This document shows positions 3,570 through 52,080 of a DNA stretch of 64,000 bases, in pieces. Made by a program: the position numbers and the translations under genes. Source of the DNA: Psammoneis japonica (Eukaryota); assembly GCA_008632985.1 (NCBI GenBank), contig QPGO01000031.1, forward strand, positions 62,001 to 126,000, given 5' to 3'. The notes below the pieces were generated by a model, which saw only the letters and a program-made list of their open reading frames with translations, ran no database searches and was not told where the DNA came from. How positions within the stretch are numbered: position 1 is the stretch's first letter; every line of letters starts with the position of its first letter.

Positions 3570-4478
3570 TTGTCATAATTTAATCCCCATGTTCAATGTT
3601 TGTGTCATCATCTGGAAGAACTTTCAACTGCAACTTCGCACTTCTGTCGCGCGGCAGATCGGCGCGCGGTGGCAAAAAACGAGGGGAGCACACTTCAGCA
3701 ATCAAAAATGTCAAGAGCACGACGGGCGACGACGGGCGACAGGGAACTTGTTAGAAAATCATCCGCATGACATTGAGGATGCGATTGATGTGCCAGAACT
3801 ACCAAGCCACATCGCAAGCATCTCGTGAGAGCTTGTCCAACATGGACCTTGCATCTCTCGCCCTCACCCCGAGCTGCCACATCACAGCAGGTTCACACAC
3901 TGGGTTCACACGCTGGGTTTCCACCTCCATGACGAAAGAAAGCAAACAAAAACTTCCACCCAAAACTTGTTGCAAAGCTGCAGACAAGCATGAATGGCAT
4001 GGTCTGTGTCAGCCATGACAAACACTGAGGTTTCCCTGTTTCATGGAGATGACAACGCCTTGTTTGAGCGACTTGTTTTTTGGAGATCAACCAGAGACTG
4101 GTTTGAGTTGGCAGACAATTTTGAAGAAGCAGGAATTGTTTTGCAAGGTGCACAATGGCTTTGACATGAGTCTCATTGCAGCCTGTGAGCAAGAAGACAT
4201 CAAGTGCCTCCATCAAGATCCTGGTGTCATCGTCAGGGACAAACTGAAGAAAGTCAGCAGCGCAGCAACCTTCTTCAATGCACAGCGAATCTTGGAACTC
4301 CAAAAGAGCCACGGATCTTAAGACACCCAAATTTTTGGGCATCAAAATCACAACAGAATTTTCAACGAGCCTGGAAAATTTGTCTGGAACTCATGCAAAG
4401 TCTTGTCCAGTTTCTGCAGAAATGTCAATGCCAAAACCAAAGTGGGCGTCAGCTCCAAAGAACTTTGATGGGGTCATG
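3570..4478. repeat. degenerate TpA-depleted repeat-like sequence flanking the copia element on the left (unidentified older element)
   Basis: TpA is rare and the ORFs are broken and Cys/His-rich. It lies outside the LTR. No recognisable domain. Confidence 0.45.
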
Positions 4479-4721
4479 TGACAGAAAATGAAGATGACTG
4501 GGTGGAAGAAAACAATGACTCCTTGCTGCTGTCTAAGCAGGATGAGTCTCCATGCAGAGACCATTGCAGGAGCCGAAAGACTGGTGTCATGATGTCGGCA
4601 CTGCTGCCATCATTCTTGTGAGCCGTGTGGCTCGAAAGCAAACTACTTCGCGCGTCGCGCGCAGAACTAAAAGCACACACAATTGTGTGTGACAAACTAA
4701 AATCTTGTTCAAATCCTGTCA
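4479..4721 (-). repeat. 3' LTR (243 bp)
   Basis: Direct repeat of 9791-10035. The PPT (ctcccc on the + strand) lies at 4722-4727. Confidence 0.93.
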
Positions 4722-4779
4722 CTCCCCAGTTTGCTTGAGGGACAACAGCAACAGATTCAAAGTCAGATTGGCAGGAAGC

Positions 4780-7300
4780 CTCTGGATCAAAGTTCCAAAA
4801 CATCAGGGGACGAAGGAGGGTCCACACCTGGGAGCAACCCCAGTGCTTGCTGAGAATGTCAGCTGGGTTGCGGGAGCCTTCGATGAAGTGAAACTTGAGG
4901 AAACCGGAAGCAATTGCCTCACGTACATGGTGGAACAAGAGGGCGGTGTGTCGCTTGTGTAACTTAGAGTGCGGGATGGTGGCACTATCCACAACCGACT
5001 TGTTGTCCCCGAACATGTAACAGGTTTCATGAATGTGGACGCCAAGGCAATGCAAAGTGATGCGCAGATCAATGATCTGCTCAACGCAGGTCCTTGCGGC
5101 AACAAACTCAGATCCACACATGGCAGTCTTGACTGTTGCTTGTTTCTTGGAGAACCAATCAACCGGAAACTTGTTGAGGAAATGCTGGTTGCCATTGCGT
5201 TCATCGAGAGCCAAGGCATGCTTGCAGTCCCAGGGCACTTCAAATCTGCACTTGCATCATGGTGTGGTGCAAAAGGAGCGCAGCTTGGCTTGGTTGGCCA
5301 TGCGGAATAGCTTCTTCTGGTGCTGAGCTATGGTCTGGAAACGTTTCCAGCCTTTGGTCTCAAGCAAGCCATGTTCACGTGCACAAATGGCACAGGTGAC
5401 GGCATCATCCTTGGCAATGATGGCAAGGGGTTCAGATGTGATCTCCCCATTCTCCCATTCAAGCATTGCATTGTGGCTTGAGCCTTTCCAAGATGGATCC
5501 TGAGGTCTCAATGGACCTTCATGAGAGACGATGCATTGGAACTTCCAGAGGGTAGAATCCTTGTCTTCTTGCTTGATGTGGTGCATGATGTCATTGCAGG
5601 CAAGAACTTCCTTGCATTCGTCATTGTTGACAGAGCAAATGAACTTGACCAGTTCAGGGTTGTCTCTGATTTCCCAATCATGGTCTTCAATGGCTTTGAC
5701 AATGCGGGCTCTGTGACGTTGTCCCCGTCCTCTTGCGGTTTCATGAGGAAGGTGCGTTCGATGACGTCCTCGGGCTTGAAGACTGGCATTTTGGGCATCC
5801 TGATTGCCTCCCCATCTGGTGAAGCCATTGAATCCAGAGGGTCATGTTGGGATTTGATGATGGTTTCAACAGATCCTTTGTCAGGAGGGTCAAGACGGAG
5901 GTTCAGAGCGGACGGGTCATGGGCGGAGCAGACGTTGGAATGGCAAAGAATCTTTTGAGTGTCATCAGAAAGAATCTTGAATGTCATTTCATGACCAACA
6001 TGTTTGGCAATGCCAGTGAAGCAACCACAAAGTTGTGGGATTTGGACGGCCAGTCAGAATCGTCCAAGTGGCAGCACACGGGCTCCCACCATTGGAAGCA
6101 AAGGAGCGGGCTGATGTGGGGGTAGAACCAGACAGTGCCTCAATGGGAGGAGGCCAATGTAGCTTGGTAGATGCAGTGTGGTTAAGCACAAAGCATGCGT
6201 GCACAAGGGCGAGGAGCCAGGTGCATGCGGGAGATCCAAAGCGATCCATGATTTTGTTGGCCATGGTTTTCACAGTCTGGCAGCGGCGCTCAGCAAAGTT
6301 CTGGTGCTGTTGGTGAGGCTTGCTTTGCCAACTAGAGATGAAGAGGGCACGAAGGATGCCAAGGACCTTGTTGCTCATGTCAACCTGGGCACGGTCGCTG
6401 ATGAGCTTGGAGGGAGCACCATGATTGCGGATGTTGTCCTCAAGTGTGTTGACGAATTCTTTGTCAGTCTTGGTGCCGCAGACGTTGGTGACAAGAGATT
6501 CCGCACCAACAAAGAGCTGTGCACTGACAGGCACACTGTGTCATGCAGTCAAAGGTGCAGCAAATAGTGTCCTTTGGGAGGAAGCCAAAACAGGGGCACA
6601 GAGACTCACAGTTGGGATCTTTGGCATTGATCTTGCGCTCATGGCATTCATGGAAGAAGTTGGACGTCGGAAGGAGGTGGTCATCCAGGACAGAGTCAGT
6701 GAGCATGGCATTGTTGACAATGTGGTGGTGACGACAGTTGCAAAACTCATCAAACAGGTTGGTGGTTGGGTCGTCTTGGAGGTCGGACACGGCGTCATGC
6801 CATGTTTCATTGTCAGTGAACTGATGGTCAAGGACAGACAGATCTCAGGTGTCATTGCCAGCGAGGACAACGTGAGGGAGTGTGTCCCATTCGGCGTTGG
6901 TGTGCAGTCGTGTGGCAATGTCAATGGGAACGACGCAGCCATCTATGGTGGCTGTGCGTTGTAGACCGTTGGGCACCTTGATGGACCTGTTGTTCACATC
7001 ATGTTTGCACCACTCAAGTTGGCCACAAGAACAGATGGTCTTGCCTTTGCCAGTGCAAGCGCACTGGTGAAGGATGGCAATGACGGGTTCACGCTGCGTG
7101 TGAATGACACCACCTGCAGTGACAATGGGAATGTCAACAAGCTGGTGGTTGTCAATGCCTTGTACGTCAACCTGACGACCAGTGCAATTGATGACACAAA
7201 CATCATCACCGGTGACACCGCTGTTTGCACCACGATCCACAAGAGCACCCTTGCAAGTTGAGGCATGAGTCAAGGCAGAGTAGATGACACTGTGATTGTC
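4780..7300 (-). pseudogene. pol: copia pol remnants (protease, integrase, RNase H) with stops and frameshifts
   Basis: ORF fragments 6845-7546, 5989-6534, 5257-5586 and 4474-5238 carry the copia motifs in PR-INT-RH order. Confidence 0.9.
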
Positions 7301-8931
7301 AGTGCAACAGCAAGTGTGGCCGTTGATCTCAATGTCAGTTTTGGTGTGGCGTGAGGATGAAGATCCGGGTGGCTTCTCGCCAGAGTGGGCGGAAGGGGGC
7401 CTTTTGGGCGTGAGAAGACATTGCAGATCACCGGGTGGCAAAGGCTTGCGCTTGGCAAGGTGAGCCAGGATGGGGCCAGCATCGGCTGGGTTGGCGGCAA
7501 CGTCAGGTGGTTCAGGGTTCAGGGGCAGACGCGAGGTCGTGAGCATTGGCTGACAAGTTCACGTCACCATCGCTGCCAAGACGGAGGTCGTGGAGGTTGA
7601 CTGCTGTTGAGTCATGATAATTGCCAGCATGAGCAGTGCGTGAACCAAGGATGATGGCCTTGGTGGACTGAGGCAAGGTGTCCCAGATGCGCTGGTGGTC
7701 CGGCGGGATGCGACGCCATTGTTCCTTGGTGAGGGAGTTGCCACAAGTCTGAGCAGCACAAGCCTGAAGGACGTCAACATCACTGTTGATGTCATGGGAT
7801 ACGTCATCATCAGGGTCGTCAGGAGCCAGGTCATGTTCACAGATGGCGCGGCGGGGGGCGTGTGAGGCTGTCTTGGGGTTGAACGTGCTGTCGCACTGTG
7901 CCGCTGCCAAAAGCAGGAGCCCACAGTGCTGCTCACAAGAAAGACCCGTGCCATTTTGCATGCAAAACTGATCAGCTTGATTCTTTACCAAACAAAGTTC
8001 TTTGACAGGGTGAACAGCATTCTTGAGCATGACGCATTTCTGGCCATCCGAAAAATGGTCCGTGTCGGGGATGAGAGCTTCGCACTTGCAAGCTGGTCCT
8101 GCCAGTGGAGTGTGAAGGCATGGGTGGAGCCTTTCCAAGTGCCATCACCAAGGCGAGTAGAGGTGAGGCATGTGAGAAGGCTCAAGGACTCCAGGGATGC
8201 ACAAGTGGACACAAGGGCGTACTTGGAAAGTTCAAGATGCACCGCTTGGGCATCAGAGGAGCCGACATGTTCATGAACAAGTGCCTTGCCCTTGTCATTT
8301 TGCAAGATGCATTCAAATGCGGCAAACATGCATTTTTGTTGTTCGGCAAACAAGGCCTTGTCCTCAGCTGTGTTGGGCTTGTACGTTGAGTCGAGGATGC
8401 GATCGACATCCTGAGAGCAGGCCTGTGCAATGATGGAGGTGTGCCACGTGTGCCACTGCTTGTCTGACTTGAGAGTCACAAAAGTGAGTGGGTCACGTTT
8501 GATGCCTCGCTTGAAGTCACGCACGGGGTCACATGGTTTTGGGGGCAACAAACCAGGAGCAGGAGCAGAAGGTGCCGTGCCCATGGAGAGGGACGCTGCG
8601 CACTTGGGGCTGAGATGACAGTTGGCAAACTCTTCATGTGTGAACAACGTGGGGTTGTTGCTGACATCAGCGCCGCTGCGTGCTTTAACCGTGTGCAAAC
8701 TAATCAAAGCAGCAATTTGTGCTTTGCAGCCATGGGGCAAAGGCGTTTGATTGGTGCCGTTGTTGTAAACTGGAGCATCGAGTTGCAACAGGGTAAACAT
8801 GAAGAGACCTGGTGCAAATCAGTGCCATCAATGCTGAGGGCGGAGCGCAACGGACTGTCTGCGGCTTGATTCAGAACAGTGCCTAAGATGCACTCAAAGC
8901 AATCAGTTTGTTGCTGTCTGGTGAGAACCAT
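7300..8931 (-). pseudogene. gag: copia gag remnants
   Basis: Fragments MVLTRQQQTDCFECILGTVLNQAADSPLRSAL, DFKRGIKRDP, DKGKALVHEH and LHWQDQL resemble diatom CoDi gag. Confidence 0.8.
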
Positions 8932-8989
8932 GGTGCAACTGATTGGGTGCCAGGACCAGAGTTGGAGAGTGGACTGGAGTTGGAGAGCA

Positions 8990-9052
8990 GACTTGAAATA
9001 ACTTGAGACTTGACTTGAAACTTGACTTGAAAAATTGACTTGAAAACTTGAA
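8990..9052. repeat. ACTTGA (TCAAGT) short tandem repeats in the copia 5' UTR
   Basis: acttgaaataacttgagacttgacttgaaacttgacttgaaaaattgacttgaaaacttga, just upstream of the gag ATG. Confidence 0.8.
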
Positions 9053-9790
9053 CTGTCTTGCAAGTCAGAAGCCGCCAGGTTGTGCCATCCCATTCACAGT
9101 CAATTGCCAAGCTTCCTGTCCGGTCTGTAGAGTTGTGCCGGCATGTCCAAACCCACAGCTGGTGACGCTTTGGGTTGCCTGAGAGCGGAGTGACAGGTTA
9201 AAAAAACCCTGCTGACAAGCCAACCAGAGGTGGACAAGACCTCCGAACCTTTCTCATTTTACATCGGTTGGACAACCCAATCAGGCCGGCCAGAATTGGC
9301 ACTGTGGAGGGACAAACAAACATGGGAAAAGCACCCTCACCCCAATGTGGACTAGAGTCATGAACCACTTCCTCTCACAGTTGTCCTTGTGGACCTTGTG
9401 GGACTGTAGAAGACCAGCAATCCGGTGCAGACAGGCAGCAGCAGACTTGGCGTGCTTGGAGCAGGACCAGAGTCAAGTGACAGTGTCATGTGCATGTGAA
9501 CACATGCAAATGTGTTGGTCTGTCTGTCAATGGGAGTAGAATCCGCTGTGAGGAATCCGGAATCTCAGAAGCCTGAGAATGCGGACATTCCTGACCAAAC
9601 AAATGTCCGTTGAACAAACACACGCAGCGATTGGACGCATTGGATGAATCCAAACACATGTGTCCAATCCAATGTTCAGCAGTGAAGAAGGTGGGTGTGT
9701 GCTTCCACTGCCAACGGTTCACGTCGTCGATTTTCTCGGTGACGATGATGAAGGCTCAATGGGTGAATGTGTTGGCCGAGACTGTCAAGC

Positions 9791-10035
9791 TGACAGAAAA
9801 TGAAGATGACTGGGTGGAAGAAAACAATGACTCCTTGCTGCTGTCTAAATGGCAGATGAGTCTCTGTGCAGAGACCGTTGCAGGAGTCGAAAGACGGGTG
9901 TTGTGACATCAGCACTGCTGTCATTGTTCTTGTGAGCCGTGTGGCTCAAAAGCAAACTACATCGCGCGTCGCGCGCGGAACTAAAAGCACACATAATTGT
10001 GTGTGATAAACTAAAATGATGTTCAAATCCTGTCA
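9791..10035 (-). repeat. 5' LTR (245 bp)
   Basis: Direct repeat of 4479-4721 with TGACAG/CTGTCA termini. Confidence 0.93.
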
Positions 10036-10860
10036 TGCAAAAACAAAGCAAAAAAGAAAGCCATGTGACTCTTGAAGACACAGCCATGCATTGCAATGAC
10101 TCAGACACACTGTGCCAACAAATGCAATGACAACCTCTTGCACGGTCTCTGAGGGTTTTAACTGTCGGCAGTCTCACAATCATTTGAGTGGCAGTGCTGA
10201 GCAAAAAAAAAGTGTGCAGAATGAAGTTGGAGTGCAGCTGACGAAAAAAGCAGTCAAAGGAGGTTGACAAATTTGCTCCAATGATGCTCTCATTCTGCAG
10301 AGTGATGAATGGAGCTCCTCCCTGGCTTGTGTCTGCCCTAGATTGATGGCAAAGGTGCAAGTGTGTTGCACTCAAATGTGAAATCAGAACAGTGTGTGAT
10401 GTTGCTTGTGATGAGTTTTTGTGGATTGCTTGGCCTGTTTGTTGCATCAAAAAGGCAAAACACAGTTGTCACAAGGTCAAAAATGAACTGCAAAATGGGG
10501 CAGTGCCACAAAATGCATTTTGTGTTGATGTCATTGCACGTCTTGGTGTTGAGAAAGGGCCACCAGCTCCCCACTCATTCGCTCGTCGCACCCAGAGTGA
10601 GCAGTCACGAGTCATCAACCCCACATGACCCACTCAACTCAAACGTTTTTGAAGCACCAGCTGGACTTTGACCCCCGCCAGATCCACAAAACATGAAAGA
10701 CATGAGCATTGTTGGTTTCCAACTCTTCAAAACAATGTTTTGCAAGAACACGCAACAAGCATGCACAGGACATGGCTGGCATCAGACATTTGGGGGTGAA
10801 TGTGACTTTTTGCAGAGCACCTTTGTTGCACGGGAAAGTGTGAAGGATGATTTTTAGTGA
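10036..10860. repeat. degenerate TpA-depleted repeat-like sequence flanking the copia element on the right
   Basis: Same dinucleotide signature as 3570-4478. It is probably the other half of the sequence into which the copia inserted. Confidence 0.45.
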
Positions 10861-11266
10861 TGGCTCCACAACTGACGCAACTCTCTACTTGTGACCCAAA
10901 AAGTTATCGGGAACTTCGTATGAGTGTGACATTGGTTGGTTCGAAATGCATTTTGGGGTGGTTTTGTGATTGCACGTGGAAGCATGGCGTTGGGCCCCAT
11001 TGCTGTTGGGAGTGGGGCAGGCAACACAAGCACGAGCAGTAGCATACTCTCTAAGTATGGACCATCTTGCCTGACTGTGACTCTCGACAGTGGTGCAGAT
11101 AGAGTTAGCGACTGACGCGTAAAAGGACCTCGAGACCTCTCGGCTAAAGAGATTATCGACAGAGAGTTTACCCAAAGTACCCAAAGTAGTACCAATTTGA
11201 AAGACCAAAAACGACAATCAAAGCAAAAGCTCATGCATTCCAAATTCCAAAAGACAATCTTATTAT

Positions 11267-30067: not shown

Positions 30068-32794
30068 GCTGCTTGCGATTATTCGTGTTCATCGCCATTT
30101 TGCATTTTGCTGCAATACGGGACATTGGCACAGGTGACATTGGCAGAGGTGACATTTTGTAGTGAGGCACGATCGATGCTGTAGGCACGATCCGCACTGT
30201 CCTTGCGCGGTCCCCGCCACAGTGCGGCCTCTTGACTTCTGCAATCCTCCGATGGGACAGTTGAACACTGTCAGTTCAGTGAAGGACACAGTCCGCCCTT
30301 GCACATCTTGCATTTCGCAGGAAGAAAAGATGACATTGTGTTGTCATCTCAACAACACAGAACAGTGGAGACCAAGAACCAGGCTGCTGGCAGAATGGCC
30401 CAGCAGCCCAAGTCCAAAGCCCACCACCCTCAGTCACTGCCAGCAGTGGTGCTGCACCCTGCTCCACCTCACGGCAATGCTCAGGTTGTTCCCAGGAGCT
30501 GGTGCAGGCTGGCAGAGTGAAGGATGGCAGCTGGGGCAGGAGGAGGAGAGGGGGGAGCACCACTGTCACCTCCACAGCCACCAGCCATTGCACAGCAGGC
30601 GCTCCAAAGGTGCGGCAGTGCTGCGACATTCAACCAACACAATGTGCACTGTCCCTGTCACCACCCTCAAGATTTGTCATCTTTTTGCTCAACATCTGGG
30701 GAACATTTGAGAGGGTTTTTGGACCTGTGTGCCAAGGACTTGATTCACAAATGTCCAAGCCACCCAGCACTTCTCACCAGGCTGCTGCAGCGACACCTGC
30801 AAGCAGAGATCCTGTGTTGGATTTGTCAGCAGAACACTTTGCTCAGCCCATCAAGTTGTGCCCAGTGTGTGCCTCATGGCAACTGTGCATGTGCCTGGTG
30901 TGTGCATTTCCCAAGTCATCCCTTGTGCCCTTGAGATGTTGCCAAAGCCATTTGAGCACCTGTTTGCCCATCGCATGCTCCTTCTTGGGATCTGCTGTGA
31001 AGCATGAGTGCTGCTGAGTGGTGCATGCAATGTCGACACTCCCTGCAGGCAGAGATGCACCTTGCAAAACCAACAGCTGTGGCCACCTTTGCCAATTGAA
31101 GATGTGGCTTGATGGATGAGGAGCTGAGCAAGCAAAATGTCTGGAGAGACACACAATTGTTCTTGCAGGTTTTTGTGAGCATTGCTGTGTTTGTGCAGCA
31201 GCCACAGTGGCAACTGCCCTCTCTCACCTCCACAAGGAAGGCAAAGCATTGTCCAGGGGAGCAAAAATCCCATCTGGCACCCTCCACATCTTCTGCCAGT
31301 GCAGGCACACTGCCAGCACACCTGTTGCTGTCTCACACCCTTTGTGCACAGCAGAGGTGCTCTCAAGAGCAGCGCCAGCCACAGCCCCCACAAGCCTGCT
31401 GAGGAACACGCTCACTTGGGCAGCAGAGCAAAACAGCTGGTTTTGCTTGAGTCGACAGACAAGGGAGCTCTGGGTTGTTTTTTCATGTGCTCTGTGTCTG
31501 ATCCTGGCTGAAACTGCCAGTGCCCCTCAACAGCCATTGTTGGTGCCCCTGTGCTGCTGTTGCCAACCACACCTCTGTTGTGGGTTTGACAGCACCACAC
31601 ACCAGCCCAATGCACCCTGTCAAGTCTGTGCATTTTGGGTGAACCTTGAACTGCAACCTCCACCAGACACTCATGGCCAGTGCACCTCAATGCCAGGTCT
31701 GTCCAGCAAAAGCGGGCTTCTTGTTGGTTGTTGGTCAACGGTTTTTGTTGCAGAGTTGTTGTGTGGCCCCATCATGTTCACACCTTCTTTCCACCCCAAC
31801 ATGCCTTCCCATGGGGGCTGGGCAAACCCACCCCAAATCTTTGCACTGCTGCTGAAACCTTTGAAGCCTTGGCCAGCACCACCACTGTCCATGGCAGCAT
31901 GCCCCTGGGACACCCTCTGGAGTGACTGTGAGTCAACCATCCAAACACCAGACGACACCACCACATCATTGCCTGTCACTGCACAATGCTTTTCATGTGC
32001 CAGCAAAGATGCCTGACCCTCATTTGTGATGGCAATGCCCCCTGCCTCAGCTGTTGATGTCCAGGCACACTGGGCTGGCAGTGCAAGGGTTCTCTGCAAC
32101 CTCCATCAAAAACAACTCTGAGTTGCTCAAACATCCTCATGCCTGCCAAAACAACAACACCATTTCATGACACTGGCTCATGTGGCTGCATTCTGCCCCC
32201 CCCCCCCTCAACAGAGCAGATGATGTCTCTTGTTTCAAGCAAGGGCCTTTCAAACACTGGCTTCCTCAAACATTTCTTGAGCACCACTTGCCCAGCAAGC
32301 AAATGTCCTGGCACATTGTGACCCTTCTCCACCCAAACTTTGTTCTGCTCTCTGTGCTGCACAATGTGCTGCTCAACAACATGGCATCACTGCCTCTTGA
32401 GCTGCCACCAAAACTCCCTCCATTTTGGACCTGGTGGCAATGTTCTGCTCTGAGTTGGTCATGTCAGTCCACTTCTCTCAAAGACAATGAAGAGCCTGCT
32501 GTGCTCATTCAAGTCTTTCTTCAATGACACAGAAATGGAGAGCAGCTTCCCTGATTTGTCATCCATGGATGCACCGCCAAGGATGCTCTGCAGCCAGTTG
32601 GCCAAATTTTTGCTGCAACAGAGTTCCCAGACCCACGTCTCACACCCCAGATGATGAAATGGATTTCCACCTCACTCGCCAACTTCTCAATTTTTCAACA
32701 AGAAAAAAAAGAGCCAACTTGCTGACCACATCAAAGTGCCCCCTGTGTGACATGTGATCATCCATTGGACAATGCATGCAGCTGCAGCCAGTTG

Positions 32795-32799
32795 CCCCC

Positions 32800-32830
<31 letters not shown>

Positions 32831-32840
32831 ACACACACAC
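32795..32840. repeat. poly-C run followed by a (CA)n microsatellite
   Basis: About 22 C followed by about 12 CA/AC units. Confidence 0.9.
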
Positions 32841-33599
32841 CCAGCACCAAAGGCACCACTGACATGACTGCCACTGTGTCTTCTTTGTGACATGGCCTGC
32901 CTTTGGACACCACTCCATTCTGCTGCCTTGCCACAATGCATTTGTTGTTTGTGGGCTGTCCTCCAGCAGCAACATCTTCTGTTTGGATGTTTGAGAGGGG
33001 CTGCCAATGCTCAAGAAACTTGACAACCCCACTTTTCTATCTGCTGCTTTGTTGACCATGCAAAAGAACAGCATTTGTGGCAAAGGCACTGGCCTTGGCT
33101 GCTTGCACCACCCTCTGTCTTGTGCTCTGTCATTTGAGTCTGCCAAGGACTGCAGGCACCTCATCACCCAACACCTGTTGGAGTGTCAAGCCACGGCTCG
33201 CCAACTGGCACATGCTTGTCTGACTGACCCCAAACTCACCACACAGCTTGCAAGCATGTTCCCAACAGCTGCCATTGACTGCCACTGCTGTCATGTTGAC
33301 TGGGCGCAGAAGCCAAAAAGTGAGCACAAGACCTCACCAACAACTCAACAAGAGCCACAAACACAAATTCATCATGTCGTCAACAATTGTCAGTGTGTCC
33401 TGTGTCCTGTGTGAAAAATTGTCTGTCTGTCATGCAAAAACTGCCTCACACCTTGATGTTCCAACACACTCCTTCACACAAGCCATCAATTGATTGGCCT
33501 CATGTGCCACTGACTGCAGGAGGTGGAAACCATGCCAGCCAACCAATCATGCCACTTTGACTGCTTCACCAATCAATGTGGACAACATCATCTGACTCC

Positions 33600-34140
33600 A
33601 CTGATGAATGATCATTGTCATCATTGAGCAAAGGACAATCCTTTCTTGCATGCCCAACCTTGTTGCATTTCCAGAATTTGATCTGCTCTTCTTCTTGTTT
33701 TGCACAAGACTCCTCACACCCTCAGGTTCTTGTTGGCTCCATGCATGTCCAACACCTGCAGTGCCTCCTTGGCTGAGTTGGGGCAATTGTCAACCACCCC
33801 CAGTGCAAACTGCCAATGTTGGTCTTTCAAGACATGCCGGTGTTCCTTGGTGCCCTCCATTGGCATTGCTGCTGACAATTTGTTTCTTTCTTTGTTCTGG
33901 GTGTCCTCAGCATCTGAGCTGAACACACCTTCTTCTTTCTTGGCAATTTGTTCTGGGGCAATCTGCCACGGGACATTTCCGCCATCTCAACAATGCTTGT
34001 GAGCCATTTGCAGCAAACTTGAACAAGCTTTTCTCTCCCTTGTTTTTGACAAATGAGTGCCAACTGCTTCCAAGCCTTGACTGGCTGAGCATGCAAGCAC
34101 ATCTTCCCATTTGCATTGAGGAACAAGATCAACTTGAAGC
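33600..34140 (-). pseudogene. possible LTR-retrotransposon gag fragment
   Basis: LKDQHWQFALGVVDNCPNSAKEALQVL resembles the G.D.YP.T...A..LL gag motif after Cys->Tyr reversion. Confidence 0.3.
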
Positions 34141-34149
34141 TGCAGTGTG

Positions 34150-36800
34150 TTGATGTCATGTCACAATCATCTGATCCAAGCTCAGTTGCAGTCAACAACC
34201 AATGCCAATGTGGCGACAAACCAGCACCATGTTCCCACTGAGGATGCCTGGAGCTGATCTGTGACAAAGAGATGTGCAAGCCTCTGAGGCACACCAGTGG
34301 GTGGCTCTCATGACTGCAATGTGCATCCTCACATTCACAAATCTGCAGACTTCCAAACAAGGCTTCTGCCATTCATCCAAGAGCTCAGCCACAATCAAAT
34401 GAAGCATTGCTTTGGCCTCTTTGCCTGGCAATCCATTGCATGACACTGCAAATGGAGCAGAGTGGTGTCTTTGCTCAAGGCATCGCTTGAGGTTGTTTGT
34501 GATTCACCAAAACCAGTTCCAGCAATTTGGACAGGCAAGACCTTGCACATCCGTGTCTGGTGCTCAACATCAATGGCTGTGTCTTTTGTTCTGTTCTGGC
34601 ATTTGCAAGCTGGCACATCTCCACTGTCACCATTTCTCAACTTGTTGAGATTTGCAGCGACACTCTGGGTTGGCCAGCCAACTGGTTTCCTGCTGTTGAA
34701 CTTCCTGGGGAGTGACCAGCATTGATGAGAGGTTGGTCATGTGCACAGGAAAGCTTGGCAACCTTGTGGCCAGTTGGCAGCTCAGCTCATCATGGATCTT
34801 GTCATGTTGCGAGATGACCAATCTGCCCTTCTTGCACTGAGTGGCATGTTGAATGGAGAGTTTGTGACCACATCCATCACAATGCTCAGGTGGGTGTCTT
34901 GTGAAGCAATGCCATGCCACAGGCAAAGTGCATCATCTCATGGAACTCCTCCTGACTCAAAAGGTCAGTGCCATTCAACAGCAGTGGGCACATGGACAGC
35001 CAGGCTCCAGTCTTGGCACTGTGTCCAACAGAAGGGGCTTTCATGTCTGAGAAAAGAGTTGTGAGAACAGTTTTTGAGGCTGTCTTCATGCATTTTTGCC
35101 TTTTGTTGTGCCACCTCCTGCTTTGCTTTGTACATTGTGTCCTTGTGGACCACTGAAGAGAAGCACAAATGTCCACAAAGTGAGTCAATCACAAAGCATG
35201 TGAGAGTGCTTGCTTTGCAGTTTTGCACCACAGACTTGGGGTTGGGTGAGGCACAGAGGTTCCTGAAAATTTGAATGGAAGAGAAGACAAGGCAATTGTT
35301 GGGTCATTGCCATCCACTGTCTCACCCATTGATGCAGGCAGAAATTGATGCTTGACCACAGCATCCTCAATCTCTGCAAAAAATTCACCACAGTCTTCAA
35401 CTGCACATTGGACATGCTGCCATTGGTGTCAGAGAGACTTCTGAAGGCCCACATGGGCTGTCCAAAAGTGATGAGAATCACAATTTTGGCAAGACCGCCG
35501 ACTGCCAAGGTCCACTTCTTGGACTTTCTTTAAGCCATTTGTTGTGCGCTTCTGTCTTCCACTTTGCCAATGAAGCTGCTGAGGCATCTGCTGTCGGACT
35601 CTGCTGAGAATCCCACCAGATCTCCAAAATGCTCCAAGTTGTTCTCCAGATTGCACTCTGGAATCTGGAATCAGTGCAAGAATGTTCTTGGAGGCATCTG
35701 TGGGGTGACACTCAAATCTGGGTCCAACCTTGTCTCACGGAGTCAAGAAAAGCTTTTGCACAATGTCAAATTTTCCTGCTGCAGCCAAGTCATTGGTGTG
35801 CCAAGGGGTGGGCACTTTGGAAGGCCTGGTTGATGAGCCACCGTGCAAAGTGGATTGCCTTGAGCAATGTCTTCCTTGCTGAGAAAATGTGCTGCCACGC
35901 CAAAGTGACATCAGGCAAGAAGAGTCAACTGGTGTTTGCAGGATGCCCAAGTGTGTCTTGCATTGTGCAACATCAGAGCCCTGCTGGCAGCTCCCAAAAG
36001 TCTGCCTGCTCCAGAAGTCTGCCCAAGTGCTTGGAATTGCATGCAAGTTCTCACAGTGTGTGCTTGTCTTGTCTGCAGCACCTTTTGTCTGCATGCAAGA
36101 ATCTGGTGCATTTTGTGCACAACAAATCCCAAAAAAGCAAAGAAATTTGTTGCAATTCCACCGCATGAATTCTGCTCATGAAATCATGTAGAAAAGCTGA
36201 TGGTTCATGAGATGCACTCAGCACAAGAATTGTGTGGAAGCTGTGTCCCAAAAGGGCAGACTTTTGGGGTGGGAATCAGTGCAAGTCCACAGGGCATCTA
36301 CATGATTTTGGAGTGAGCAGACTTTTGGGTGCTGCCAGCCTGCTCAGTTTGTTGAAGCTGTTGGGGGCATCAACAAAAAGAAAGCCACAGTCATCTTTGA
36401 ATTGCGCTGCTCCCAGAGCATGTTTGTTGCATGAGTTCCACATTTGATGCCCACTTTCAGAAAAAGCACATGACTGATCTGCACTCACGCTTCTCCAGCT
36501 GTGGCTCCAGCAACTGGGAGAATCACTTTGGCCGCTGCATGCTGCCAGACTTCTCCAATGTTGACCGGATGAATGCCCAGAGTTTTGTCCAGTGCTGGAA
36601 GTCTCTTTGCCATCAGTGCCTGGCAAGCAGACCATTGGGAGAGTTGTTTGCAAACCAATTTGTGAACTTGCACATCACTTTCCCAAGCAATCCGCTGGCT
36701 GATCTGAAAGTCCTCGATTTTCCAAGAGTCCTGCTTGAGGCAGGATCGTTGTTTGGCACCACATTTTTAAATGGCTCACAATTTTCCTGTTTTCCCGTGC
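34150..36800 (-). mobile_element. CRE-clade (restriction-like endonuclease) non-LTR retrotransposon, 5'-truncated and degenerate
   Basis: RT motifs RLPALDKTLGIHPVNIGEVW, FLFVDAPNSFNKLSR and PWHTNDLAAAGKFD (from WYADD). Zinc knuckle CDGCGHKLSIQHATQCKKG...QHDKIHDEL. RLE tail GKEAKAML...WQKPCLEVCRFVNVRMHIAVMRATHWC. Confidence 0.88.
35984..36338. mobile_element. 355-bp MITE with 22-bp TIRs and a 4-bp CCTG target-site duplication, inserted in the CRE RT
   Basis: cctg|ctggcagctcccaaaagtctgc ... gcagacttttgggtgctgccag|cctg (one mismatch). Removing it restores the frame NKLSR-ALMLHNARHTW. Confidence 0.88.
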
Positions 36801-37386
36801 TTCACCCGTGTCATTTTGCAATGCCTCTGAGCATCCCAAAACACTTGTGAGTGTGTTGAGCCCCCATCAGGGCTGGCAGACCCTTGTGTGAAGTGCGCTT
36901 GTTGACCTTCAAATGCCAATTGTTGGTTTTGGTGTGGTTGTTGTGTTCAACAAACCGCCATTTTTCACCAAAATCGGGCTGTGGCAGACAAGCCATGACT
37001 TTCCAGGAAACAAATGCCGACAATTGGCGTTTGACCGGCTGTGGACACATCTACAGACAAAGTTCGACCCATCGCTGAAAGCTTGTGTTTGGTGAACGCG
37101 TGTGATTTAGTGCGAGGAATCCGGGTTTTTAAATTGGCTGTGCCGCTCACGGTGGAGAATGTCTCGCTTGCTCTGTACCGAAAGAGCAGCACTGATCTAT
37201 TTTTCTGTCTGAAGTTGAAAACTGGGTAACACAATGATGTAGGTTCTCTTGCCTCTACATGCTGGTGCTTCACTCGTGGCTGTTCTAGTTAGGCATTATA
37301 TCACCCTCTCTATAGCCGTTGCAGAACCGGCCCCAATCTTTTCATAGTATGCAATTGAGTTTTCTCTACATCTGCTTGCCACGGTA

Positions 37387-47237: not shown

Positions 47238-47335
47238 TCTAGCTAGAAGTAGCTACTCTAGCTCCTAGAGAGGGCCTCTCTACCGGTCTAGCTAGAAGTA
47301 GCTACTCTAGCTCCTAGAGAGGGCCTCTCTACCGG
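47238..47335. repeat. 2 x 49-bp perfect tandem repeat within a TAG/CTAG island
   Basis: tctagctagaagtagctactctagctcctagagagggcctctctaccgg occurs twice. Confidence 0.9.
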
Positions 47336-48368
47336 TAGAGCTAGTAGTAGATTAGAGCATCTTCGCCAGTGAGTCGTAAACATAAACCTATGTCCGTACG
47401 TCTTCCGATACGAATGAGATTCACAAAAAATCATCATTTTCGGTGGATCGTAAACATATTTTTTGCGCTAATAACCCTTTTGAATTTACGATTCATGAAA
47501 GTGAATCGCAAATCAGGCCTTGGATACGATCCACCTCCAAAATCGTAAACGAAAATCGTAAATTTCTGGTACAAAAAGGGTGTAGAAATCCTGTAGAAAG
47601 TGCGTGTCACCATGACGAAACGACAATCGACGCTTTCTTGATGAGAGGACCTTACAGAGGCCCAACAATTAAGACTTTGTCGTATCTTATGAACTTACAT
47701 ACGGCCGCATCGAGATATGGGAGGAGAACCGACATATGGGGGGTTTATGGGGTCAGAAGAGAATAAGGCATAAATCGTGTGATAACATTTCGCTTGTTTT
47801 CGCGATGTAGAATGACTTTCACAACATAGTAACACATAGATTATTCTCTATTGATAGACGTCGACATATCTTTGAATAGACGGTGATTTGTGTCGTATAT
47901 TGCGTTCAAAGCCGCCACGGCGTCATGTAAAATTCAACAAGTCCGTCCTACCATCAGTTAGTTATTGATATACGTGTATGGAGTTGGTTGTTACCTCAAC
48001 GTCTGCCCAACCATCGGCCGAATGTGAATACGATCGTGATCGACTGAAAATTTTTTTTGGAGGGACGCGGAGCGTCCCTGGAGGGACATTTGTCCCGCGG
48101 AGCGGGAGGGACGCGCGAAGCGCGCCCCCGAGGGACAGGGTGTCCCTCGGGTCCCTCGCAAATCGGCCGGAAATCGACGGGTGGAGCCGCCGACCAGACC
48201 GGTCACCCTACGACGGACGACAGACGGTCCGACCACCGCACTACCGCCGCTCGCTCGTTGCTGCTGTTGCACCAGCAGCAGGGCCTAGTCTACCGTTTTC
48301 ATTGCCATTGTTGCGATTCGTTGCGATTGGACTTGTATGGCATACGCTGTCGGCATCATTTGTCCATA

Positions 48369-50827
48369 ATGCCATCTCTCATCAATGAAAAAGATGCTCC
48401 AACTGCACAGGCCCAGGACGGGTTGGAACCACCAGCAACCACTGCAGCAGGCACCATCTTCTACTCGCATCACAACAATCCATACAAGAAGGACAAGTCC
48501 AGCGACGAGCCGAGCGACGAGGCAAAAGCGAGTGAGGTGGACCACATCAATCGACTTGCCACTGAGCTTGAGGCCTCCTTTTTGGAAGATTCAAACGAGG
48601 ATGAGGCAGAAGAGCGCGAAGACGAATCCATCATGCTCCAAGCATGCGCAGAAATGCAAGACAAAGCAGACCGAACCAAAGATGGCCACAAGACGGCGGT
48701 AGCAGCATTTAATGTTTTTGCCAAAAAAACAGGATATCCACCAGTCCATCAGTTGGAACGAAAGCATCTGCGTGGAGAGACTCTCACCGTGCCGAACTGC
48801 AGCAAATTGATGAGGCAATTCTGCACTTTCTCAATGGAGTGCAAGATTGAACGCGAAGGTGCTCGCAAGGGGACTCATTGGAAGCCTGGGTCGCAGGCAC
48901 AATGTCATTCTGGTGTGCACATGGTGCTCAAGAATGAGTTGGGGCATGGGGCACTTTACAAAAAATCCGAGCATGACGAACTCAACAAAGCCCTAAAAGT
49001 GAGGGCCCGTGTTGCGGCTGTCAAGCGTGGAGAGTCGCCGGAGGATTCGATGGTGGGCCTTCACAGGGAGCTTCTGGAAGAGGTGAATGATGCTCTTCTC
49101 AAGAAAGGATGCCATCATGAAAGAGATGTCACCAACACATTGCACCATGCTGTTGGGCGGACGGCTGAGGCAGGTGCATGGGTGTGGCACACAACCGTTT
49201 GGAACAGTAGCAAGCAGCAACTTGAGAGCGACTGGAGGGAGACAAAAACCGCAAAGAATGGTTTCATGACATGGCACAAGGATGCTGATGGATTCTTGTG
49301 TGACAAACATCACTCCATGGCCGCAAACATTGTCACCATGACGATTCAGTGGAATTTGTGTTTCCAGAGCTGAAAGATCTGGCCAGCGGTGGCGCAGCTG
49401 CAAAGGTGTCTCAAATTCTAAAGAACTTGGTAGATGAAATTGACAACTTGACAAAGGATCACACGAGCCACAGCTTCCGTGTCGGCTCTGCGGATGACAT
49501 GGTGTTCCATCGTTGCTTCAATGTTGTTGCTTCCATTGCTCGCAGCAATTGGGATTTCAAGGGTGATTCTGCAGTATTTGGATGTTGGACTATGAAACTT
49601 TTTGTGGCCATGGCAGGAAAGAATCTGTGCCGGTGGGCTGATCCGAAGCAACACGTTTCAGCCCCCAGTTTGGACTGCATTCTCACCGCTGAAAACGGGC
49701 CGGTGTTGAATTCGTGGATTCACAGCTTGTTCTCTACCAATGGAATAAAGGCGCTTGCTGCTGACGGCCATTTGAAAAACTTTCGTCCTGTAATGCTGGC
49801 CACCTTGCTCATGCACCACCAGGAAGTTATTGACCGATACGGATGCAGCGACAAATTGGTGAGGCGACTAATCGACTCGGCCCGAGTTGTTGGCACACCG
49901 AGCAATCAACTCTTGGAGTGGGGCACGGCAATTAAAGAAGAATTCATTGCAAGTAACGCGGGCAACTTTCACAAGAGTGGCTATACGTCGACCGAAGAGA
50001 AGCAACAAATCCAGATCGACGCTCTGATGAAGCGAGTCGCAAGCATGGAAGCCAAGCAAAAGTCGATGCATGAGGAACTGCGCAGCATGAACAAGAACAT
50101 CGACAATAAGTTGGACCTCATTGTGGACCTTATATCTGGTTCGCCCCAGTCTTCCCCATTGAAGAGGAAGAAACTGTCACCACCTGAAATGTCGGAGGAC
50201 ACGGATAGGACGGAGACTGCTGCAGCGGGGCACGACGCGATGGCTGTCTTGATGCATGCACAGAACACGCAGCCACAATTCAATGCTTACGCTGATGAAA
50301 AGGAACTTCGAGATTCATCGCTTCACGGACTTCTCAAGAAGCTCATTGAATATAGGATCAATTGGAGGAGTGCTCAAAATCCTTTTGGTGCTAAGATTGA
50401 TCGCAAGCTCAAGGCGAAAGTGCTCAAAATCCTCAACGACATGCACCACCCGAGGAACTTGAATACGCTGTTTACAAGTGAGGAGAAGGAGTATCTCAAT
50501 GGCAGCAATCGTCCTCATGCAAAGGATGATGACAACTACACGGCTTGGTGGGACAGGGCTTGCAAGATATTGAAATCCGTGTCTCTCAAGTGTGTTTTTA
50601 ATTTGGTTGAGCAGCACAACAAAGCCGTGCCCTTGTGCAACAAGCTGGTTGATGAAAAGAAGGCAGCATCAACCCGCAGCTTCAAAGCTGGCACAAGTGA
50701 GGAGAGGAAGGTTATTGATGGAAAATCCAAATTGGAAAACAAAGTGGGAGCTGTTGTTTCCGTGTTGGAAAAACTGCAAACGATGATGAACAAGATTGAG
50801 AAAGAGGGCAAGAGGGCGGCGGCTTAA
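48369..50827 (+). pseudogene. tyrosine recombinase (Crypton-like) with a C-terminal coiled-coil/basic extension; frameshift at about 49345; putative catalytic Tyr reads as Cys
   Basis: GRTAE (box I Arg, 49158), ETKT (Lys), HSFRVG (HxxR, 49469-49480), RSNW and AVFG[C] (TGT at 49583-49585) occur in canonical YR order. Confidence 0.8.
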
Positions 50828-50845
50828 AAACTCCAGTCACATTGA

Positions 50846-51080
50846 CAGCAGATTAGCATGCTATTTGTATCTCTAGTGTTTATTGTAAGAGTCTTAATTT
50901 TAACAACCTAATGTGCTCTATCATGCGACACCACTGGCAGTTTCGGATCGACGGCAGATTAGCTTGCTGTTTGCACTGGCATTCCTTGTAGGAGTCTTAA
51001 TTTTAAATACTACATCATATGCTCTATCACATGTCACATGACATACGTTGGTGTGACACTGTCAATAGTTTCGGATCGAC
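50846..51080. repeat. imperfect 2-copy repeat (about 105-125 bp) downstream of the recombinase stop
   Basis: The blocks gcagattagc...gagtcttaattttaa...tgctctatca...gtttcggatcgac occur twice. Confidence 0.8.
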
Positions 51081-52080
51081 AATTGGGAATCGAAATACTG
51101 CACAACCTGGATCCTTCGTACACGCTTTCCTTAGTGCGCGCTTCTCCAAATTTGAAATTGCTGCATGGTTTCAAACAAAACAGAAATCCATAATTCACAA
51201 TGACACACAATGGAATCAAGCTCATTGGATGAATTATACAATTTATGTTAAGAATGAAACAAGCAACGGGAAAATCGGTGAAAGTATCATTGAGATATCA
51301 CGCCGTAAAGTGGGACACCGGCGGCTCGCATCATCGTGCTGCTGCAGTTTGCTGCGTGCAAATTGACTTGGTGAAATTTTGTGAGGGTTTCGTGTCCCTT
51401 GGAAATTGTGCGTGTTGTGTGCGATTGATTATGTGTCTGTGTATGGCACTTGTATGCGTGTCGTGTCCCTCAGGAATTGGGTGTACTGTCCCTCTGAGTC
51501 GGTCTAACACAGAAAATGATGGTCGCGTGCAGAATCGTAAACTTATACGGGGCAGTCTGTTCGCTTGTCCTTTTAGGTTATGTTCCTATGTTTATGTTTA
51601 TGTTTACGACTCACTGGCGAAGATGCTCTTAGACAGGGCCTACAAACGGTGCGGTGGGACAATAGGTACTGTAGGGCTAGTAGTCTCTCTCTCTAGAGTA
51701 GCTACTCTCTACCGGCAGTAGAGGCATTCCGAATCTTCCGGCATTTCTTCGATTTCTTCATGAAACTCTTATGAAAATATTCAGACATGAGCATAATCGG
51801 TACAATGAGTTGACGTGGCGCGACTGGAAGATTCGAGTGGTCGCACCTCACAAATTGAACGCGAAAATGCACTTCCGTCTCGTCATTGGATTCTGATGTC
51901 TGATGTGTCGTCTGGCGTGGTACTGTAATAGACGACTCCAGCTTGACTACCGGTACGACTAGGGCTAGAAGTATTAGTGAGTACTAAGACACCGCCACAA
52001 ACCGAACATAAACACCACATCAGGACTCACTTTCAATCGGTTCTAGCTACGTCTTCGGAAAGAACAGCATCACTTCAAGC

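Follow-up and report, generated by a model that had tools for sequence, protein, structure and literature searches.

A frameshifted CryptonS-like transposon copy in the diatom Psammoneis japonica and its probable erosion by a TpA-directed mutational process

Targeted hypermutation of mobile DNA is familiar as C>T change, in repeat-induced point mutation (RIP) and by APOBEC, or as RNA editing by ADAR, whose known signature is A>G change with a preferred U on the 5' side. RIP, as known from Neurospora and other fungi, turns C:G into T:A mainly at CpA, and it creates TpA and stop codons. Here we describe a 64,000-nt stretch of DNA from the diatom Psammoneis japonica (contig QPGO01000031.1, positions 62,001 to 126,000; hereafter the window), which carries a broken tyrosine-recombinase gene within a CryptonS-like DNA transposon copy. 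The gene is poor in TpA, and its comparison with a sister form of the element points to the opposite direction of change, from TpA to CpA or TpG.

The closest described process is that of Bigelowiella natans. The preprint by Mettrop et al. (bioRxiv 10.64898/2026.01.13.699255) reports hypermutation of integrated DNA from giant viruses and virophages, almost all of it T/A>C/G transitions and only at TpA, which appeared in some of the mutation-accumulation lines, and proposes an ADAT2-like deaminase; coding sequences depleted in TpA and enriched in CpA and TpG were enriched for transposon domains. It was the only matching report found in our literature search, which returned no paper on TpA hypermutation in diatoms. 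The closest described elements are the CryptonS transposons of oomycetes and a diatom, whose anatomy is given by Kojima and Jurka 2011 (PMC3212892).

TpA loss in the recombinase gene and its direction

The gene consists of two open reading frames (ORFs) in different frames, 48369-49370 and 49304-50824, both of which align along a single homologous protein, P0001 (861 aa), whose residue numbers are used here for the catalytic columns. The sister form mentioned in the following list is described below.

48369..49337, + strand: 5' part of the recombinase gene, in the first frame; covers the N-terminal domain plus the first half of the catalytic one; P0001 residues 120-360 are matched at 47% identity
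48687..48689, + strand: His codon CAC; TAC in the sister form, Tyr in P0001
49113..49118, + strand: His-His, encoded by CAT CAT; the sister form has Tyr codons here, and P0001 has Tyr-Tyr
49143..49145, + strand: His codon CAC; TAC in the sister form, Tyr in 16/33 homologues
49158-49160, + strand: Arg-I, within the 5' part
49245-49247, + strand: catalytic Lys, within the 5' part
49337..49338, + strand: position of the frameshifting 25-nt deletion
49338..50827, + strand: recombinase gene, 3' part, second frame; conserved C-terminal region with coiled coil, TAA stop; 39% identity to P0001 residues 373-857
49469-49480, + strand: HxxR box, 3' part
49550-49552, + strand: catalytic Trp, 3' part
49583..49585, + strand: TGT (Cys) in the column of the catalytic nucleophile Tyr, Y454; spacing to HxxR and W as in Cre

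An earlier sequence-only reading of the window had put about 3 TpA against about 19 CpG at 48841-49380, and the exact count returned the same two numbers: 3 TpA (observed/expected dinucleotide ratio, o/e, 0.10) and 19 CpG (o/e 0.55). As the host baseline we used the 11 host ORFs of at least 300 aa within the window, in which the o/e was 0.50 +/- 0.06 for TpA (minimum 0.41) and 0.95 +/- 0.06 for CpG; counts were compared with the host level by Poisson probabilities, and contrasts between sites were evaluated by Fisher tests. At the host level, 15.6 TpA are expected in 48841-49380, which gives P(<=3) = 1.3e-4, or 1.2e-3 with the lowest host o/e. Over the whole gene (48369-50827), 38 TpA stood against 76 expected at the host level (P = 1e-6), and the resulting o/e of 0.25 differs from that of host coding sequence. 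The gene has 106 CpG (o/e 0.71), and the o/e was 1.52 for TpG and 1.41 for CpA. RIP was rejected as a candidate on this composition, in which TpA is depleted and CpA and TpG are enriched, rather than TpA being in excess. The TpA o/e was 0.15 in the 5' part of the gene (CpG 0.61) and 0.31 in the 3' part (CpG 0.78). Further 3', as the sequence-only reading had noticed, TpA is more frequent, with an o/e of 0.64 in the non-coding part of the insert (50828-51511). At the 5' end of the insert (48046-48368), CpG had an o/e of 1.21 and TpG and CpA were not elevated, and the flanks bearing inverted repeats had a TpA o/e of 1.0-1.4.

The direction of change was read from a sister form of the element, represented by contigs of two public runs of one sample, X1 and X2. 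These are contigs rather than raw reads; their building drops minor variants, and their summed depth is not equal to copy number. A further run, X3, yielded nothing, and no RNA run was among those listed as carrying the sequence. Differences between the window and the contigs were listed for 40 of 232, and the set was complete (20 differences) for 1,785 nt covered by X1 records 3-6. In this complete set, 12 differences (at 48687, 48770, 49020, 49113, 49116, 49128, 49143, 49192, 49308, 49316, 49858 and 49896) had CA or TG in the window and TA in the sister form, and none had the reverse (binomial 5e-4). Both strands were affected (8 CA and 4 TG). Three differences had TG or CA in the window against CG in the sister form, two were the reverse of this, with CG in the window, and the remaining three were transversions. 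Among the 40 listed differences, the corresponding ratios were 14:3 for TpA and 7:3 for CpG, with 13 other differences. Among about 40 TpA, 12 had changed; among about 86 CpG, 3 had (Fisher 6e-5), as had 3 among about 1,533 other nucleotides. This bears out the suggestion that TpA was lost faster than CpG. The changes were also concentrated in part of the gene, as had been proposed: 10 of the 16 TpA in 48562-49574 were changed, against 2 of the 24 in 49585-50494 (Fisher 4e-4). We regard the polarity, the rate contrast and the clustering of the changes as established. A pyrimidine stood on the 3' side of 10 of the 12 mutated and 14 of the 28 unmutated TpA, although these sites are few.

The sister form also explains the broken frame. 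Behind 49337, the X1 and X2 contigs have 25 extra letters, and homologues have 12-15 more residues at this place. Since the second frame is offset by 2 and 25 = 1 mod 3, the longer form of the sister is in frame.

The second lesion is at the catalytic nucleophile. The TGT codon at 49583-49585 aligns with the Y454 column, as the sequence-only reading had expected of the nucleophile, and this column holds Tyr, rather than Cys or His, in 96-97% of homologues: in 32 of 33 aligned homologues and in 117 of 122 in a wider alignment of the top 150 representatives. The nucleophile Tyr is thus absent from the window copy, which has Cys instead. The gene is inactivated twice, by the frameshift of the 25-nt deletion at 49337/49338 and by TGT at the nucleophile codon; judged from its sequence, the protein is a tyrosine recombinase by descent and not an active enzyme.

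Other Tyr codons had fared similarly. Among the 27 Tyr of P0001 that are aligned in the window, only 5 were kept, while 7 read His, 4 Cys, 3 Asn and 8 other residues. For comparison, 14 of 28 Phe, 10 of 13 Trp and 10 of 17 His of P0001 were retained. The Tyr content of the window protein was 1.2%, against 2.9 +/- 0.6% in the family, and equals the lowest of the 150 representatives; the His content was 4.5%, against 2.3 +/- 0.6%. At five places (48687, 49113, 49116, 49143 and 49308) the window has a His codon where the sister form has one for Tyr, and two older Tyr losses, at 48972 (His) and 49326 (Asn), are common to both. Three motifs had been read from the sequence as carrying lost Tyr. In GCHHERD, the two His were indeed Tyr (TAT/TAT in the sister form), but the Cys stands in a conserved Arg column and looks like CpG decay. 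The first His of TLHHAVGR, the CAC codon at 49143, was read correctly as well. The His residues of KDHTSHSFR, by contrast, are conserved His in homologues (DHTGHGIR), and one of them supplies the HxxR box with its H.

Erosion was not confined to this gene. Two other blocks of the window had the same shift in composition, in a much stronger form:

4001..11000, - strand: eroded block; o/e 0.12 for TpA, 0.51 for CpG, 1.64 for TpG and 1.72 for CpA
30301..36900: eroded block; o/e 0.01 for TpA (6 TpA in 6,600 nt), 0.11 for CpG, 1.98 for TpG and 1.82 for CpA

The ORFs of the first block (7 kb) look copia-like by eye and are rich in Cys and His; five of them gave no Pfam family at E<=1e-3, leaving the copia-like look unconfirmed, and erosion may hide elements such as this one from profile searches. 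The second block lies between two intact host genes, has a longest ORF of at most 298 aa, and is the end state of the same erosion. Altogether, erosion was seen in three transposon blocks, and the 11 host ORFs of the window were spared. Relative to these ORFs, the ratio of the log loss of TpA to that of CpG was 2.4 in the gene, 2.2 in 4001-11000 and 1.65 in 30301-36900. Because the joint loss occurs in the same three blocks with these ratios, the two losses share their targets, with TpA ahead. That TpA loss is independent of CpG decay is not borne out by these data, in which both losses rise together.

Compared with RIP, the locus is alike in that transitions accumulate in repeated or foreign DNA, kill transposon genes and leave host genes intact. 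It is unlike RIP in that the direction is reversed: TpA is destroyed, no stop codons are made, and an adjacent multi-copy element of about 1 kb is untouched.

The likeness to B. natans (bioRxiv 10.64898/2026.01.13.699255) is threefold. The changes are T/A>C/G transitions at TpA, here in 12 of the 20 sister differences and all with the mutated state in the window; they are confined to foreign or mobile DNA, here three transposon blocks as against the spared host ORFs; and they are episodic, appearing in a subset of lines there and as a local cluster in one copy here. The differences are that B. natans is a chlorarachniophyte with viral integrations, whereas the present case is a cellular DNA transposon in a diatom, known from sequence comparison alone, and that TpA loss is here joined by CpG loss, while the words 'CpG' and 'diatom' do not occur in the preprint text available.

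The recombinase family and the nested insert

A search with P0001 returned 636 representative clusters at E<=1e-3, and one family member, P0154, comes from the transcriptome of another diatom, Skeletonema japonicum. In the 35-row alignment, R301, E304, K330, R419, W443 and Y454 are near-invariant columns. The top 150 representatives agreed, with R in 119/120, E in 119/121, K in 121/122, Arg-II in 117/130, W in 122/133 and Y in 117/122; the His of the HxxR box was present in 63/129. The window gene retains the other five catalytic residues, Arg-I, Lys, His, Arg-II and Trp.

The fold was established by modelling P0001, the homologue, rather than the broken protein of the window. The AlphaFold model (predicted local distance difference test, pLDDT, 76.6) matched Cre/Tre in Foldseek (E 1e-4), and every listed Foldseek match at E<=1e-3 was Cre or Tre. 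VIA-align ranked Flp first (Z 15.8), followed by Cre/Tre (Z 13.4-14.7) and then Xer, lambda Int, Tn1549 Int and IntI; in the Cre match with Z 14.7, model residues 119-448 lie on Cre 21-320. A constant offset of 128 places P0001 R301 and W443 on Cre R173 and W315, and Y454 at most 2 residues from Cre Y324. Sequence searches were less informative. Phage_integrase of Pfam was matched by 2 of 35 family members, with E down to 1e-4. Both window ORFs had no significant Pfam family and 4 weak matches (best E 0.0025, below the Pfam cut-offs), none of which was a reverse transcriptase or a DDE transposase. Sequence-profile searches of the PDB gave only Cre/Tre at E about 1-2 from one alignment and none from another. 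Because these profile searches gave no significant match, the family assignment is based on the fold and the motifs. As modelled, the gene belongs to a large tyrosine-recombinase family with the Cre/Flp fold, and we count family, fold and catalytic columns as established.

The family resembles Cre, Flp and lambda integrase in its fold (Z 12-16) and in its catalytic residues R, E, K, HxxR, W and Y, which are spaced much as in Cre. It differs from them in sequence (about 10-13% identity), in an added N-terminal acidic region, in its eukaryotic transposon context, and in about 400 additional C-terminal residues that include a coiled coil. Residues 263-574 of the P0001 model, the region after the catalytic Tyr, aligned with Flp and yeast Ndc10 (Z 13.7-15.8); the Ndc10 alignment agrees with the proposed Crypton origin of Ndc10/GCR1-type domains. 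In other members of the family, catalytic columns likewise hold residues one transition from the expected one: P0002 has Cys at Arg-II (HSLC), and P0032 and P0109 have His at the nucleophile Tyr column, with a Tyr content of only 1.2% in P0032. These three may be eroded copies in other genomes.

The gene lies in an insert whose boundaries could be located exactly (strand given where one applies):

48046..51511, + strand: CryptonS-like tyrosine-recombinase DNA transposon copy, 3,466 bp including one copy of the 6-bp repeat
48046..48051: left 6-bp direct repeat GAAAAT, agreeing with the 6 shared letters of the joint
51512..51517: right 6-bp direct repeat GAAAAT, with which the host element resumes behind the insert
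47354..47390: 37-nt inverted repeat of the host element, left arm; 97% complementary to 51593-51629
51593..51629: 37-nt inverted repeat of the host element, right arm

In contigs of both X1 and X2, 48045 is joined straight to 51512, skipping 3466 nt, with depths of 508 and 39.8 and with 6 letters that fit both sides; one 497-nt contig, X2 record 9, bridges the empty site (47676-48045 and 51512-51625). Given this joint and GAAAAT at both junctions, the recombinase lies within a 3,466-bp insert flanked by 6-bp direct repeats, and its ORF pair is the only long gene inside 48046-51511. The 37-nt inverted repeat is outside the insert, which is devoid of terminal inverted repeats (TIRs) and of long terminal repeats of its own. 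At about 47264, the summed depth of the contigs climbs from 67 to about 1,000; it is about 950-1,300 in the flanking parts and drops to 61 after about 51691 (about 61-67 outside this range). The recombinase insert is therefore nested in a multi-copy inverted-repeat element. This host element (about 47264-48045 plus 51512-51691, about 0.9-1 kb) is uneroded though multi-copy, with a TpA o/e of 1.0-1.4 and no TpG or CpA excess. The sequence-only reading was right that the TIRs are rich in TpA but had assigned them to the ends of the recombinase element; as the joint shows, they belong to the repeated host element and therefore not to the recombinase element.

In anatomy, the insert agrees with CryptonS of oomycetes and Phaeodactylum tricornutum, as given in PMC3212892, in carrying one gene only, for a tyrosine recombinase that has a conserved C-terminal region and lacks a GCR1_C domain, in having terminal direct repeats of 5 or 6 bp (6 bp here) without TIRs, in its low copy number, and in its stramenopile host. 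No reverse transcriptase or DDE transposase was recognised beside the recombinase in its ORFs by Pfam, as expected of a Crypton. The insert differs from CryptonS in its termini, which are GAAAAT rather than the TATGG of most CryptonS, and in that the window copy is frameshifted and has lost the nucleophile Tyr. We call it CryptonS-like, a placement made by anatomy and by the diatom family member and not by comparison to Repbase CryptonS sequences. Within the window, tblastn and blastn found no further copy of the element. In metagenome contigs, the P0001 query gave 585 pattern matches, none of them related. Of the 19 loci matched by a degenerate 23-letter pattern drawn around the nucleophile, tblastn showed none to be related.

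Competing explanations and the proposed process

We think it probable that this dead CryptonS-type copy, lying in a repeated inverted-repeat element, owes its low TpA content to mutation, namely to a targeted TpA>CpA/TpG process that acted after the split from its sisters. Several observations weigh against this. The sister letter at 49584 is not among the 40 listed differences, the X1 contigs break at 49575-49584, and the nucleophile Tyr>Cys step is drawn from homologues only. Cys is not enriched overall (1.8% against 1.6%). Asn, encoded by AAC, stands at two of the most conserved Tyr columns and in 3 of the 27 P0001 Tyr columns; such columns are unexplained by the process, because AAC is no TA>TG/CA step. 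The TpA o/e of the sister form is itself only about 0.32-0.42, near the lowest host ORFs, so that some of the TpA deficit may be native or of earlier date. Finally, the window-specific letters were found in no contig, all contigs reading the sister letter at those places.

The alternative that survives best, though we consider it improbable, is passive chemistry without a dedicated enzyme, in which poorly repaired, silenced and methylated chromatin accumulates both CpG deamination and a TpA-prone lesion, such as a photoproduct or a modified thymine. The joint rise of TpA and CpG loss in the three blocks is in its favor, and so are the three window-side CpG changes, which share the tract of the TpA changes (3 of 38 CpG in the tract against 0 of 49 elsewhere, P = 0.08). 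Nevertheless, changes that cluster within less than a kilobase of one copy, and that affect 30% of TpA but 0.2% of other sites, look episodic and targeted, and the adjacent multi-copy host element was left untouched.

It is less likely that the letters of the window are an assembly artefact, with systematic long-read consensus errors at modified bases in transposon chromatin, giving C/G at former TpA and T/A at former CpG, and a true locus that reads as the sister form. Assembly error keeps this small share of probability because the window-specific letters never appear in the contigs at the listed fully differing places in the gene; run X1 moreover contains only 0.61 of the gene's sampled words. 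However, the clean 25-nt deletion and the transversions (3 of 20 differences) set the window apart as a separate copy, and minor variants are dropped when contigs are built. At 49575, 50868 and 50895, the contigs read CA where the window reads TA, so that TA/CA polymorphism does exist within the run data, and X1 records 5 and 6 agree with the window over 908 nt of the gene, apart from 2 differences.

Still less likely is native composition, by which the gene avoids UpA/TpA like most coding sequences, and its Cys and His reflect ordinary divergence of a fast-evolving transposon protein. Host ORFs under-use TpA too (o/e 0.50), the sister form is low in TpA as well, and one homologue, P0009, likewise has His at the column of 49814. 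Against this stand the 12:0 polarity relative to the sister form, the five His codons that are Tyr codons there, the retention of 5 of 27 Tyr as compared with 50-77% for Phe, Trp and His, the clustering of the changes, and a nucleophile column that is almost always Tyr.

RNA editing followed by reverse transcription, in which an ADAR-like enzyme would convert A to I in transposon RNA that is then copied into DNA, can draw on the resemblance of the ADAR signature to the TpA changes and on the retroelement-like look, by eye, of the eroded neighbor block 4001-11000. We give it almost no credence, since Pfam recognised no reverse transcriptase in the insert, where the recombinase is the only gene found, changes fell on both strands (8 CA to 4 TG), Cryptons are held to move as DNA circles (PMC3212892), and changes in B. 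natans arise in resident DNA during mutation accumulation (bioRxiv 10.64898/2026.01.13.699255).

The targeted process that we favor would convert TpA to CpA or TpG, that is, make a T:A>C:G transition on either strand. Its per-site rate would be about 9 times that of CpG decay and about 150 times the rate at other sites, and most changes would fall in the gene's 5' half, along a tract of about 0.75-1 kb. Since every Tyr codon contains TpA, Tyr would become His or Cys, and the stop codons TAA and TAG would be removed and never created. We infer that the agent works on DNA in transposon chromatin, in local bursts; because Cryptons move as DNA only, reverse transcription of edited RNA would not be needed. 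A candidate agent, by analogy with the B. natans proposal, would be a deaminase that targets adenine on either strand of TpA. In a broader form, to which we incline with less assurance, this diatom would have a DNA-level, TpA-specific T:A>C:G hypermutator that strikes transposons in sub-kilobase bursts without reverse transcription, runs at about 9 times CpG decay in its early phase, spares an adjacent short multi-copy inverted-repeat element, and kills tyrosine recombinases and YxDD reverse transcriptases through their Tyr codons without making stops. This would be a second independent 'reverse-RIP' lineage after the chlorarachniophyte.

The copy would show such a process at an early stage, on a transposon without an RNA intermediate, and its sister supplies the direction, the per-site contrast between TpA and CpG, and the tract length. 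It opens to test the targeting (chromatin, transcription or length as against mere repetition), the coupling to cytosine methylation, and the causal deaminase or base modification. For annotation, it is relevant that long open frames, with Cys or His for Tyr, persist in eroded elements, which can escape profile searches.

Repeats and further forms

Short repeats occupy both ends of the insert and part of its non-coding DNA (none with an assigned strand):

48060..48165: GC-rich short GGGAC...GTCCC palindromes, insert 5' end
50841..51029: tandem repeat of about 106 bp, two copies, in the 3' non-coding part; 76% identity in self-BLAST
51379..51500: GTCCC-bearing repeats, inverted relative to the 5' block, insert 3' end

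From its sequence, the palindrome block at the 5' end would be a set of putative recombinase-binding sites. Also in the 3' non-coding part, summed contig depth reached its maximum for the stretch at 51036-51363 (2,264-2,538), with backward joints 51319>51175 and 51320>51134; this segment is a separate high-copy or tandem repeat. The host element contains CGTAAAC motifs that recur and, at 47238-47335, a 49-bp tandem duplication. The runs also contained a third form of the recombinase element, decayed further, over 49544-50201 at a depth of about 55-70, with internal skips 49641>49772 and 49828>49994 and with its own letters at 49544, 49575 and 50201.

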